From an archaeon (GTDB lineage Archaea; Undinarchaeota; Undinarchaeia; Undinarchaeales; JBDRKL01), in NCBI GenBank assembly GCA_043814055.1, contig JBDRKL010000004.1, forward strand, positions 32,001 through 96,000: a stretch of DNA of 64,000 bases. The letters run 5' to 3'. Positions 6,831-12,069 of this stretch are shown in pieces. The notes under the pieces were generated by a model. It did not search any database. It was not told where the DNA came from and saw only the letters and a list, made by a program, of their open reading frames with translations. Numbering within the stretch: the first letter of the stretch is position 1; the number at the start of each line of letters is the position of its first letter. The position numbers and the translations under genes are program-made.

Positions 6831-6915
6831 TATGGTGAAGGGTTATTTAAAAAGAAAAAACAAGAAGTAGTCAACGACCACGAGCTTGACGCGTGGGAAC
6901 GAGACTGGATGTGAA

Positions 6916-7575
6916 ATGAAAAAAGGAATTCTAATATTTGCATTGACTCTTGTAGTCTTAATTAGCGGCTGCATTGAAGAAGTTGAAGACCAAGGCTCAA
7001 ATTATTTGCCAAGAAACATAGAGTCTGGTCTGACTCATTCTGAATGCATAGCCCAAGGTGGAAAAGTAACCTCTGTGAATTTAGAAGATGGTACTGCATG
7101 CAAGATTTCTGAAATAGATTTGGGGGTAGTTAGTGATGTGGACTGCATATGTCAATGTTGTAAACCAAAAGAAGAGCCTAGAGAAGAAATATTTGATGAA
7201 GTAATGCATGTTGGAGAATGTCAGAAATTATCTGAAGAACTTGATAATTATGTTGGAATTGGATCCAATAATCCAATTGATAATTTTTGTGATAAAGATT
7301 ATGAATTATGGATTGGTGGTGTATTACTAGATTACAGCTGTTCATATGTTCCAGCGTATACGCGGTATGAATGTGATATGACATTTCAAGGATATAAAGA
7401 AAGATTAAATTTACACATATCAAATGATGAAGCTACGCTACCTTTTGAGACTGGAAAATTCTATAAGTTTGATATAACTAAAACATGTGAAACTCGAATG
7501 TCTGCCGCTAGTAGCGGAAATTTTCCAGCAGTGAAAGAAAATTTAATATTAATTGAATGTGCATTGGTCTACTAA
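6916..7575 (+). CDS. Cys-rich secreted lipoprotein (AT-rich gene)
   Basis: MKK + hydrophobic stretch + ISGC lipobox; many Cys. Confidence 0.75.
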   Translation: MKKGILIFALTLVVLISGCIEEVEDQGSNYLPRNIESGLTHSECIAQGGKVTSVNLEDGTACKISEIDLGVVSDVDCICQCCKPKEEPREEIFDEVMHVGECQKLSEELDNYVGIGSNNPIDNFCDKDYELWIGGVLLDYSCSYVPAYTRYECDMTFQGYKERLNLHISNDEATLPFETGKFYKFDITKTCETRMSAASSGNFPAVKENLILIECALVY

Positions 7576-7577
7576 TA

Positions 7578-8111
7578 ATGAAAAAACAAACTCTGGTATT
7601 TGCATTGATTCTTGTAGTCCTATTCAGCGGATGCATTGAAAAAACTGAAGAAGAGAAATGGGAAGATTCAATTGATGACATTCTAGATGACAATGGCGAG
7701 GAGTGCGGAGGTTGGAGTTACTTTGACGGTGGTGAATTTATTTGCGAGTGCGACGGAGAGTTAATCAAGAATATGTCCTGCCCACCCAATGCAATGTGCG
7801 ACGGCGGAACCTATTACTGCACAGGGAAATGTGGGGAATGCGAACTCGTAAAACCAGAGCCATCTGAAGAAGAGCAAGACAAACCAATAGAAGAAAAAAC
7901 TCCAGAGCAGAACTGCATAGAAGAAGGTGGTAAAGTTTCAACTCTCTCCTGCTGCAAATCCGCGGGCGATTTCCCGAACCAATGCCTTGTCGGTGCATGT
8001 GGCTGCGCTCCAGACTACAGCCACGAAGTTAAAATCTGCCAGTGCGGGGCAAGCATGTGCTTTAATGGAACCCACTGCACAAGCTGGGCAATGCCATACT
8101 ACGAAGAGTAA
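7578..8111 (+). CDS. Cys-rich secreted lipoprotein
   Basis: MKK...FSGC lipobox; two Cys-rich modules. Confidence 0.75.
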   Translation: MKKQTLVFALILVVLFSGCIEKTEEEKWEDSIDDILDDNGEECGGWSYFDGGEFICECDGELIKNMSCPPNAMCDGGTYYCTGKCGECELVKPEPSEEEQDKPIEEKTPEQNCIEEGGKVSTLSCCKSAGDFPNQCLVGACGCAPDYSHEVKICQCGASMCFNGTHCTSWAMPYYEE

Positions 8112-9112: not shown

Positions 9113-9739
9113 ATGCAATTGAGTACTGACTACGCTGGGGCAGTTGGAGTAATTAAGGATGCCATACGGGCTGCGCCTTTCAAGCACAAAAGAGCTTTTG
9201 TAAAAGAATTTAATTTTTTTCTCAACATCAATTGGTTTAAGCAAATTAATTTTAGTAAAGAAAAACCTGGGGTAGATCTAGAAATTGAAAAATCCCTCGC
9301 GCTATTCGGTGTTGATTACCCCAACCGCTATCGTTTATTGGACTCTCTGGAAAAATGGGGGTTGATTATCTCTGATTTTGAAAAAATGAACTCGGATTGG
9401 CGAGACATTAGAGAACACAAAATGGAGGCGGCTGCAAGGGAATTTCTCAAAGAAAGAATCAATCCTCCTGTGAGAGCTCTTGTTGGAAACATTCTCCAGT
9501 TTCTTGAAAGAATTTTCTGGAACATGGCACCAAAAAACGTTAACAAGGAACTTCTGGGATCAGTCTGGAGCCTCGCAAAGGAGGACCTGCGCGGCGACCT
9601 TTACTACATAATCTTGGGCAAACCAAACCCTTTCAAGCCATTTGTTAACCTTTGGAAAATGGGCTTTTTAGTGTCTGGTGTAATTGATGGAGAATTTACT
9701 GTTTCTTATGTACCAACTCCCAAAATAAAAAAAGAATAA
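9113..9739 (+). CDS. Hypothetical protein
   Basis: 208-aa ORF preceded by TATA-like TTTATA. Confidence 0.65.
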   Translation: MQLSTDYAGAVGVIKDAIRAAPFKHKRAFVKEFNFFLNINWFKQINFSKEKPGVDLEIEKSLALFGVDYPNRYRLLDSLEKWGLIISDFEKMNSDWRDIREHKMEAAAREFLKERINPPVRALVGNILQFLERIFWNMAPKNVNKELLGSVWSLAKEDLRGDLYYIILGKPNPFKPFVNLWKMGFLVSGVIDGEFTVSYVPTPKIKKE

Positions 9740-9772: not shown

Positions 9773-9933
9773 ATGTACGACCTACACAGCCTTTTGAGAA
9801 AGGCTGGCGAAAATCGTGCCACATTCGCAAACACACGAAGTGTGTTGCGCAATTCGCTGCCGCGAATTTGCGCCTTCGGCGAAGTGACACTATACGCGGA
9901 GTGCGAAACAAAAAACAATGTACGACCTACACA
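9773..9933 (+). repeat. 16-bp direct repeat of the rnp3 start (ATGTACGACCTACACA) flanking a 129-nt hairpin-rich insert
   Basis: Identical copies at 9773-9788 and 9918-9933; hairpins at 9787-9806, 9831-9845, 9851-9868, 9871-9881. Confidence 0.85.
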
Positions 9934-10580
9934 ACAATCTGCTCCTAACCAACTCGGAGTGCGACCTAAGGCGGTTCGGGTTCAGAAAAGCAGGAGTGGT
10001 ATTCGCTGACAAGTTCGAGCCCGAGAAGTTCAGGGCGCTGAAAGAGAACAGCGAGCTTGAGCTTTTTTCTGCTGTTAAAATTAACTCAAACAACCCAGGC
10101 CAGATGCGCAAGGCAGTTGAGAAATTCCGCAACCAGGTTGACGTGATTCTCGTGCACACCAAGGACAACGCGACCATGCGCGCCGTAGCTGAGAGCAATC
10201 AGGTTGATGTTATCGCGCACGCGTTCGTTGACCAAACCTCGGCAAGGGAGGCTGCAGCGCACAACGTTGCGTTGGAAATAAATCTCAAGGACATCCTCGC
10301 GGTTTACGGAATGAAGCGCGCAGTGCTTCTTTCAAAAATTAGGTTCAATTTGAACCTCGCAAGGAAATACAAAACTCCAATGCTCTTAACCACAGGCGCG
10401 TCAGAACTGAAAGACATGCGCAGTGCAAAACAAATCATCGCGCTCGCCGAGTGCATTGGATTCACGCACGACGAGGCCAAGCGCGCTTTGAATGAAGTGC
10501 CTGCAGGGATAATTGAGAAGAGCCGGGCGCAGAAGCGCGGGGAAGAAATTATGGATGGGGTTAGGAGGGTGAAGAGATGA
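9918..10580 (+). CDS. rnp3: RNase P protein subunit Rpp30
   Basis: PHP-like MYDLH start, AAAHNVALEIN, LARKYKTP..TTGA; superoperon position. Confidence 0.88.
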   Translation: MYDLHNNLLLTNSECDLRRFGFRKAGVVFADKFEPEKFRALKENSELELFSAVKINSNNPGQMRKAVEKFRNQVDVILVHTKDNATMRAVAESNQVDVIAHAFVDQTSAREAAAHNVALEINLKDILAVYGMKRAVLLSKIRFNLNLARKYKTPMLLTTGASELKDMRSAKQIIALAECIGFTHDEAKRALNEVPAGIIEKSRAQKRGEEIMDGVRRVKR

Positions 10581-10643
10581 GCAATACGGTTCTTGCCTGG
10601 GTAAAACAATATATATATATGCTAAGTCATAATTTTGTTTATT

Positions 10644-11318
10644 ATGGACTTAAACGACCCTCGAGTAAATAAGTACGAAGAATTTAACAAGACTTATCCA
10701 GCAAATATGTCTGCCCTGCTGAATGCGGGCGGGGTGCCGATGAGCATTTCCGATATTATGGAGCGAAGAGTGGAAGTGCTGGAGAAGTTCAAGGGCCATG
10801 AAGTCGTTGACAATTGGTGGGATAATTATTTTTATTCCTGCACCGGCGTTGCGCAGTTCGGCGACAGGATAAAAGTGGTTGAGCGGCCGAAGCTTCTGCT
10901 TGAGATTGGCAAGCACGTCAAAAGCATCAAAAACGGGGCATTGCAGCTGCCGAAGGATGCGTGGGGCAAGCTTGGCGGCGAGGGATTCTCTTATAATGAA
11001 TTGAAAAATGTCCTGAACAAACCTTTATCTGCATCCAAAGTATTGAAGCACCCGATTTGGAACGCGGTTGCCGGCAAAGAATTTTTGGAAAAGTATATTA
11101 AAGTGATGGGTAAGAAGTATCGGTTTAAAGAATTCATGGGCGTTTATTTGGACGACCCTAAAGAATCACAAAACAATCCAACTTTGCGGGCTTTTGTGCT
11201 CGGCAGGGGCGGCGACAGGTGGTCCGACCTCTACGGCTTCGGGGGCAGCAGGGGCCTTGGCGACTACGGCGCCCGTCTTGTTGGGGTACTTGCCGAAGCA
11301 AAGCCTCCCAAGTCATAG
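10644..11318 (+). CDS. DGR target protein with C-terminal variable region (probable CLec fold)
   Basis: 3' end matches the downstream TR except at TR adenines; ends ARLVGV. Confidence 0.85.
   Translation: MDLNDPRVNKYEEFNKTYPANMSALLNAGGVPMSISDIMERRVEVLEKFKGHEVVDNWWDNYFYSCTGVAQFGDRIKVVERPKLLLEIGKHVKSIKNGALQLPKDAWGKLGGEGFSYNELKNVLNKPLSASKVLKHPIWNAVAGKEFLEKYIKVMGKKYRFKEFMGVYLDDPKESQNNPTLRAFVLGRGGDRWSDLYGFGGSRGLGDYGARLVGVLAEAKPPKS
11183..11305 (+). repeat. DGR variable repeat (VR) including IMH
   Basis: Aligns to 11491-11604 with A-to-N substitutions and a 9-nt extra block. Confidence 0.9.
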
Positions 11319-11490
11319 TCCCAGCATTCACCGGATTCAACAAAAATAACGCATAGCGGTGGGCTTGGACTACACGCCCTCCAACAGCGCCCGCAGATTT
11401 TTCTGCGGGACATAAAATACAGCTGTGATAGCAAGTAGGCAAAAACCGAAACCTAAAACAGCAGTGGTTCCTCAAGTTGGGAAGGGCTAT

Positions 11491-11604
11491 TTTGCGGGCT
11501 TTTGTGCTCAACAGGGGCAACAACAGGAGGTCCAACCTCAACGGCAACAGGAACCTTGGCAACAACAACGCCCGTCTTGTTGGGGTACTGAAAGAAGCAA
11601 AGCC
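11491..11604 (+). mobile_element. DGR template repeat (TR), AAC-rich, non-coding
   Basis: Ten AAC codons in the VR frame; VR differences fall at TR adenines. Confidence 0.9.
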
Positions 11605-11718
11605 CTAGAATCTCTTGTTTTTTTGAAGGTAGGGGATGGGGAGTTTGGAGTTTGGGTTGCACAAACTATTTAATCGAACAAGCGTTCATTTAAATAAACA
11701 ATTGTTCAAACTATTACT

Positions 11719-12069
11719 ATGACCAAATTCAGAGTAAAACCAACACAAAAAGAAAACTGGAGATACCTAGCCTTTGAGCTAATAACAAACGCAAAGTTCA
11801 AGGAGACTGATGTAGTGAAAGCAATGGTCAGCTCAATCCTCAGATTCCACGGCGAGCTCGGCGCGTCCTACACGAACGTGTGGATGATTGAGTTCAACGA
11901 GGGCAAGCAGAACGGAATAATGAGATGTTCACACACCGCGGTACAGGAAGTGGTTGCAGCGGTCACGCTTATTACAAAAATTGACGACAAGGACGCGGGT
12001 TTTAATATTCTCGGAGTTTCAGGGACAATCAAGAAGTGCCGTGAAAAGTTTTTGATTAAGCCCAAATAG
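11719..12069 (+). CDS. rnp2: RNase P protein subunit Pop5/Rpp14
   Basis: RYLAFEL, GIMRCSH, ILGVSGTIKK. Confidence 0.92.
   Translation: MTKFRVKPTQKENWRYLAFELITNAKFKETDVVKAMVSSILRFHGELGASYTNVWMIEFNEGKQNGIMRCSHTAVQEVVAAVTLITKIDDKDAGFNILGVSGTIKKCREKFLIKPK

Follow-up and report, generated by a model that had tools for sequence, protein, structure and literature searches.

The closest described relatives of the element reported here are the diversity-generating retroelements (DGRs) of DUSEL4 Nanoarchaeota and their variable protein AvpA (PMC4372165, PMC5006420). Shared features are differences between variable repeat (VR) and template repeat (TR) that are confined to adenines, a C-type-lectin (CLec) target of the AvpA type, an IMH motif, a reach of ~1e13 variants and a hairpin inside the gene after the IMH, which in our case has a stem of only 4 bp. 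Partial DGRs without reverse transcriptase (RT) were described in DUSEL4 as well, where a fossil state was weighed against remote diversification (Paul et al. 2015, PMC4372165). According to that description they consist of target, VR and cis elements only, whereas the present module also holds a TR and an RNA leader. It further differs from the DUSEL4 elements, in the form given there, by a TR that ends in an IMH-type rather than an IMH*-type motif, by the missing C-terminal extension of the target and by its host, a phylum of 17 species distinct from that of the relatives.

In the DGR of Bordetella phage BPP-1, as outlined in the preprint on its RNA (bioRxiv 10.1101/2023.10.23.563531), cis-priming is established by the RNA regions flanking the TR on either side; the scaffold (Sp) follows the TR at its 3' side, and Avd is required. 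Pairing across the TR and adenine-specific mutagenesis are shared with our system; in contrast, the scaffold is here located 5' of the TR in a gene of its own, and the relatives use an RT-HTH fusion without adjacent Avd. DGR parts at a distance and Avd-less cassettes are also found in Wu et al. 2018 (PMC5758913), whose account of remote targets has them use the TR of the RT locus, while this module has its own. TR-VR pairs without RT appear among the partial systems of Ye 2014 (PMC4159848) and are ascribed in that context to fragmented contigs; ours lies in the middle of a long contig. The partial DGRs in the counts given by Yan 2019 (PMC6642488) are only those having both TR and RT.

The Rfam motifs RT-1 to RT-19 were found near RT genes, and in the main article only RT-10 is tied to a DGR, the role of the others being speculative (Weinberg et al. 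2017, PMC5737381). A full-text literature search combining RT-16 with 'diversity-generating retroelement' returned no paper; the supplement of PMC5737381 may say more. The present locus contains a full-length match to RT-16 (RF03019) above the gathering score. Beyond what that article states, RT-16 stands in the present family directly before a TR, as the 5' part of a longer RNA with pairing ends; the copy described here has no RT nearby.

The window, a stretch of 64,000 nucleotides, carries the module summarized in Table 1. We regard three aspects as new: the link between RT-16 and AvpA-type DGRs, the fusion of a promoterless template RNA to its target, and the host phylum. As an element it is probably dormant and a copy of a system already known. 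Since the cassette contains no DGR-clade RT it is filed as a partial element; by membership it is not a complete DGR, yet it works or worked like one.

Table 1. Features of the module and its flanks (positions in the window).
Feature	Position	Strand	Basis or remark
rnp3 (RNase P p30), left flank	9918..10580	+	PF01876, E 5e-28
AT-repeat, TATA-like element	10611..10621	+	~25-30 nt before target start; sequence
DGR target gene, 224 aa, predicted AvpA-type C-type-lectin fold	10644..11318	+	frame intact; structure model and 280 relatives
Variable repeat (VR) with IMH-like tail	11183..11305	+	15/15 core substitutions at TR adenines
In-frame tandem duplication of a 9-nt TR block	11235..11252	+	both copies altered only at adenines
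4-bp hairpin after IMH	11290..11301	+	broken in TR copy; positional counterpart of the relatives' in-gene hairpin
RT-16 RNA, the structured leader at the 5' end of the template RNA	11318..11495	+	RF03019, full length
Long-range leader helix, 11376-11385 with 11476-11487	11376..11487	+	compensatory changes; closes just before TR
8-bp hairpin, RNA helix within RT-16	11390..11409	+	aligns with family hairpin; inside Rfam match
Template repeat (TR), in non-coding DNA	11491..11604	+	ten AAC codons; VR-type motif at end, not the adenine-bearing TR type
3' tail of the template RNA and T-tract	11590..11625	+	terminal helix degenerate, 5/8 pairs
TATA-like element before rnp2	11689..11696	+	sequence
rnp2 (Rpp14/Pop5), right flank	11719..12069	+	PF01900, E 2e-23

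VR and TR are found where the first-pass annotation had placed them, the VR at the 3' end of the 224-codon reading frame. That annotation had counted 12 substitutions, all at TR adenines; the restriction to adenines holds, whereas the number has to be corrected. The 99-nt core (TR 11491-11589) contains 15 substitutions, twelve A>G and three A>T, with none at a non-A position (hypergeometric P = 1.5e-11 for 15 of 15 at adenine, given 25 A among the 99 core nucleotides). The duplicated block noted earlier is present as well: nine extra VR bases represent a tandem copy of TR 11543-11551, and this copy shows three further differences, at adenines only. In-frame indels beside AAC are interpreted as RT slippage where they are discussed by Wu et al. 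2018 (PMC5758913). In the tail of the repeats, 21 identical nucleotides are followed by four adjacent differences, so that the only non-A mismatch, placed in the tail by the first-pass annotation, is a G>T and is accompanied by three differences at A. The TR ends in the motif named IMH, not IMH*, in the relevant part of Paul et al. 2015 (PMC4372165). Folded as DNA, the VR tail reaches -5.6 kcal/mol and the TR tail -1.8 kcal/mol. Through its ten AAC and four AGG codons the TR could give rise to ~4.7e13 proteins, and no stop codon is reachable. The substitution pattern leads us to conclude that an adenine-mutagenic RT acted here in the past, and the 15 of 15 substitutions support the DGR origin that had been proposed for the cassette.

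The genome was also compared with itself in a search for further TR/VR pairs. Of 358 repeat pairs with lengths of 60-400 nt, two passed an adenine-bias filter. One is the VR/TR pair, with 18 of 19 differences at adenine. The other (G000, C4:112780-112841 and C12:3804-3743) extends over 62 nt with five of six differences at adenine and is probably an unrelated chance hit among the 358 pairs.

The target was not recognized in Pfam, NCBIfam and PDB sequence searches, and phmmer revealed 280 relatives at E<=0.001, the nearest being 44% identical. In these relatives the variable end is rich in glycine, aspartate and tyrosine and is followed by a conserved last strand; most carry a C-terminal extension that is missing here. 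The CLec assignment suggested earlier was followed up by structure prediction. A model built from 129 sequences (pLDDT 93.5) matches AvpA, the Nanoarchaeota DGR variable protein (PDB 5IOO), across the whole domain, with a Foldseek E value of 1.5e-10 and a TM score of 0.70. By VIA the same pair gives Z 20.7 with an rmsd of 2.6 over 194 residues, in comparison to 5.8 for the next entry. On the basis of this model the target is predicted to be an AvpA-like C-type lectin, with the VR at residues 181-215 of the 5IOO-like fold. Of the three motifs of Handa 2016, the target shows the last (R-x-x-G-V) and, from the second, the HP at its start, whereas the first is not recognizable. Neighbours in the ESM Atlas belong to clusters without names, mostly from Nanobdellota. 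The target falls into a subclade of nine proteins (support 0.91), for which no DNA context was found among 401 genomes of the relatives' phylum, in 401 genomes of one order of that phylum (cut-off 1e-30) or in 251, 70 and 31 genomes of three other small-genome phyla. A word-index protein search returned the target itself only, single-protein locus scans of viral and genome contigs returned nothing, and viral contigs gave no match by alignment or by the TR-end pattern. In metagenome contigs a TR-end pattern yielded a single locus, in which a VR without TR sits at the end of the contig.

The relatives have an alignable counterpart of the spacer that separates target and TR. RNA searches used a leader-core profile and the Rfam RT-16 model; the match to RT-16 covers model positions 1-158 of 158 with 82.8 bits against a gathering score of 50. 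In all 22 family loci tested RT-16 stands directly before the TR; their scores range from 51.9 to 100.8 bits, and the copy described here thus scores as high as those beside intact RTs. The relatives show the order TATA box, RT-16, TR, short tail and T-tract, in a unit of ~235-380 nt. RT-16 is therefore the leader of a stand-alone template-RNA gene in AvpA-type DGRs. In 41 non-redundant RNA genes of the family, a set that leaves out the window copy and one copy at a contig edge, a TATA box at -26 to -32 was found 35 times, and in 38 the terminal duplex reaches at least -8. The adenine-bearing TR end is seen in 38, three could not be parsed, and a VR-type motif at the TR end occurs in none of the 41.

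By RNAalifold the RNA is predicted to form a terminal helix and two hairpins as well as an 11-bp helix whose closure lies immediately ahead of the TR, with 19 of 41 pairs changed on both sides. A clamp helix between the inner leader strand and the bases past the TR was added to this structure. Across 18 relatives, 20 of 42 pairs are changed on both sides, a number reached by none of 500 shuffles, slid controls being 30-45% paired; the structure was drawn from the same 18 sequences on which it was tested. The clamp itself is only 71% paired in this alignment, partly via a register slip of one base. In the A4 alignment of 18 family RNAs the local stem of the Rfam model, which pairs the 5' end with the inner leader strand, covaries too. 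As both pairings of the 5' end covary, two conformations may alternate, which suggests a folding switch that is completed only once the tail has been transcribed. The internal loop at 11434-11454 resembles what we take to be a loop E / sarcin-ricin motif. The 8-bp hairpin mentioned in the first-pass annotation exists, but as a helix of the RT-16 leader: an interpretation as a DNA cruciform behind the VR, as in other DGRs, was rejected because the hairpin lies inside the leader and aligns with an RNA hairpin of the family.

Several features distinguish the template RNA of this genome from those of the family. It starts on the final base of the target stop codon, and no TATA box precedes its 5' end. 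Ahead of the TR, compensatory changes have preserved the inner helices of the leader, which is 47-60% identical to that of relatives and has a GC content of 0.49 compared to 0.34-0.44 in 18 relatives. In contrast, the terminal helix has a probability of 0.00 here and at least 0.93 in 17 of 18 relatives, and the terminal duplex amounts to -1.8 kcal/mol versus -9.2 to -18.5 in these relatives. Of the second clamp helix the outer part is kept (6 bp, 11361-11366 with 11600-11605). Three changes in the 8-nt terminal strand stand against none in 74 TR sites, for which uniform drift gives ~1e-3; slow neutral decay of the tail was rejected on this ground. The uneven change implies that the tail was altered either as a single block or earlier than the last retrohoming, and it points towards block deletions or a variant that worked in its present form. 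Non-A differences between VR and TR are absent here and number 0-2 in 23 of 24 RT-adjacent loci, compared to 9 in L027 and 10 in L073, which are both RT-less. Since L027 and L073 retain TATA box and terminal helix, losing the two is not a regular outcome of orphaning.

In a groundwater metatranscriptome, one contig of 187 nt matches 11290-11474 without mismatch and is the sole good cover over 8.5 kb. This contig runs across the end of the target and on into the leader, as would a read-through transcript; it is single and unstranded, has a depth of 4.5, stems from a run found with this very query and does not include the variable positions. Two other RNA runs and a second short X1 piece gave nothing usable, no DNA run came up, and missing cover elsewhere carries no weight.

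The absence of an RT from the 64 kb, as noted earlier, was confirmed and extends to the whole assembly of 979,685 bases on 14 contigs, which is 82% complete. Neither PF00078 in the window and the assembly nor a single family RT as query against the assembly at E<=10 gave a match, and an HMM made from 22 family RTs reached a best E value of 0.63 in six frames. The genome holds one RT-16 and one target only. Avd was searched for in the genome with PF05635 and PF22296 without a match, so that the reported lack of avd is correct; it is not an unusual trait, since the RTs of this clade are RT-HTH fusions (RVT_1+HTH_40 in six of six scanned), and three of four comparator genomes with such fusions likewise show no bAvd match, the fourth a weak one. 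A DGR architecture without accessory genes has already been described as architecture A in the classification of Wu et al. 2018 (PMC5758913).

On genome contigs, 54 family loci were found, 28 of them with template RNA, and 25 of these 28 have an RT or an RT piece within <=6 kb. The RT lies downstream on the same strand in ten, downstream on the opposite strand in eight, upstream and divergent in five and upstream on the same strand in one, while in one locus RNA and RT are inverted. Frameshifts often interrupt the RT genes of the family (L039, L048, L054, L091, L092, L094, L112). RT loss is seen among the relatives: the RT of L044 is truncated, genome G061 has only a 38-residue RT scar, and in G063, whose target is frameshifted, none was found. 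The scar in G061 (contig C2) corresponds to an RT N-terminus and lies ~10 kb from loci L027 and L123, a target with RT-16 and TR but no RT, in which VR and TR have drifted. In the 16 other genomes of the host phylum no DGR-type RT was detected, a single PF00078 match being present. This RT (L005, G011:C179) was rejected as a partner, as it is group II intron-like and situated on a low-GC contig of 1.9 kb that is possibly a contaminant.

The target family together with RT-16 occurs in one of the 17 genomes of the host phylum, the present one. In comparison, the target family was found in 70 of 401 genomes of a Nanobdellota-type phylum (that of a Pacearchaeota record), a tally including one unpublished genome (G425) that enters no other result, and in none of 251, 70 and 31 genomes of three other small-genome phyla. 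The genes rnp3 and rnp2 abut or overlap at ten of twelve rnp2 loci (11 genomes of the same order; one partly N-masked), the remaining two having unrelated short inserts. From this adjacency and the distribution of the family it follows that the 1.14-kb module is an insertion. A donor was not found among the genomes of the relatives' phylum and the three other small-genome phyla.

We consider it fairly probable that a Nanobdellota AvpA-type DGR lodged in the rnp3/rnp2 junction, was once functional in this lineage and lost its RT only recently. In the intact system, the transcript of the stand-alone RNA gene would fold with its 5' end pairing to its 3' end, and the inner leader strand would clamp the bases just past the TR, as supported by covariation. 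By analogy to the Bordetella phage DGR, the template RNA might serve the RT as scaffold and primer in cis. Judging from the VR/TR pattern, the RT-HTH fusion would copy the TR without Avd and with errors at adenines, and the cDNA would replace the VR, which according to the modelled fold forms the binding face of the lectin. In this genome the RT would be gone together with the DNA from target stop to RNA start, comprising C-terminal extension and TATA box. The tail would no longer close the terminal helix, block deletions being probable over slow decay. The target would still encode one fixed variant, whereas the leader would be made, if at all, through read-through from the target promoter. 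The missing RT, the broken RNA ends and the loss of RTs in relatives argue for this recent orphaning. The lack of non-A drift, the uneven change of the tail, the intact RNAs of L027 and L073, a leader score like that of copies with intact RTs, the RNA contig and the incomplete assembly argue against it.

An alternative that we regard as rather unlikely is a live satellite, its target and template RNA being served in trans by an RT-HTH whose gene lies in a part of the genome missing from the assembly. Here the RNA would be co-transcribed with the target, and its 3' end would be rewired such that the 5' end pairs with the TR end and the tail with the leader; alternative helices of this kind are predicted at 0.4-0.55 probability. 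The undrifted VR/TR pair, an intact leader with compensatory changes and a GC shifted towards that of the host, and the RNA contig spanning target end and leader are in accordance with activity, and the free variation of RT position and strand over the 25 loci is compatible with service from elsewhere. Genome G383 offers a potential precedent, since a module lacking RT but with its RNA gene intact coexists there with one full-length RT located on a different contig. In its modules L053/L120 (C91) and L090/L119 (C36) each VR fits the TR of the other locus, with 2 and 3 non-A differences compared to 12 and 12 against its own. This cross-wiring suggests trans action or a swap; trans service looks real there, with recombination or misassembly as the alternative, the longest shared stretch being 26 nt. 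Against a satellite in the present genome stand 980 kb without a piece of an RT, a TR end free of the VR-type motif in all 41 family RNAs, most of which have TATA box and terminal helix, and the limits of the single RNA contig. Taking up the G383 pairs, which suggest free-standing guides acting in trans, one might go further and view DPANN DGRs as a two-part programmable system of one RT-HTH and any number of trans-acting RT-16/TR guide RNAs. The module would then represent a cassette of guide and target that is still live and has reached a new host phylum, with the guide RNA fused to the target mRNA and its 3' end rewired; we consider this unlikely. The pair of options given in the first-pass annotation, a satellite served in trans or a recently orphaned DGR, is supported. 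We lean to the orphan because TATA box, terminal helix and an assembled RT are all missing.

Horizontal transfer of an already RT-less module from a DGR lineage, leaving a fixed binding protein that never diversified in this host, appears improbable. It would account for a family that is frequent in Nanobdellota-type genomes and missing from the 16 other genomes of the host phylum, and for the clean insertion at the rnp3/rnp2 overlap. The host-like GC of target (GC3 0.56) and leader and the distance to the nearest protein suggest a long residence instead, which without RT should have left non-A drift; none is seen, and no donor was found. An assembly artefact, by collapse of an RT-bearing region or a chimeric module, is very improbable. 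The genome is metagenome-assembled, and variable repeats often break assemblies. The module is nevertheless embedded in a 150-kb contig within a syntenic operon, and the independent RNA contig reproduces the junction of target stop and RNA start exactly, the junction after the TR having no such independent cover. All these gradings of the four explanations, from orphan to artefact, express our judgement and were not computed.

With these findings the orphan Rfam motif RT-16 gains a role as template-RNA leader in Avd-less archaeal DGRs and is therefore usable to find DGR modules missed by RT-centred surveys. An RT-HTH together with an RNA of ~250 nt represents a compact system for studying priming with the scaffold before the template, and the copy described here is a natural mutant of the terminal helix. 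AvpA-type hypermutation is extended to a small DPANN phylum, in whose 16 other genomes it was not found.

The module is located in a gene string that we take to be rpl15e-rnp3-rnp2-psmA-SBDS-exosome, rnp3 and rnp2 being the two assigned by search. The rnp3 stop codon overlaps the ATG of the ancestral rnp3/rnp2 junction. The earlier observation that rnp2 follows the TR was borne out by the PF01900 match, the gene starting 114 nt past the TR end. A functional link of the module to the flanking RNase P genes was rejected, only position speaking in its favour. The AT-repeat before the target is presumably the sole promoter for target and template RNA, judged by the archaeal promoter spacing we assume; the TATA-like sequence before rnp2 probably restores expression of the downstream operon. 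A scan for bacterial promoters and terminators remained at chance level. In two relatives, L014 and L009, independent short inserts lie at the same junction, that of L014 duplicating the rnp2 start, and the junction may be an insertion hot spot. Within the same operon a 208-aa reading frame (9113-9739, 40% GC, no Pfam or NCBIfam match) is inserted; in six relatives the small gene preceding this site runs directly into rnp3. An exact 16-nt direct repeat (9773-9788 and 9918-9933) duplicates the rnp3 start, as from an insertion at the start codon. Further upstream, 6886-8111 encodes two neighbouring cysteine-rich proteins without Pfam match that are probably secreted.
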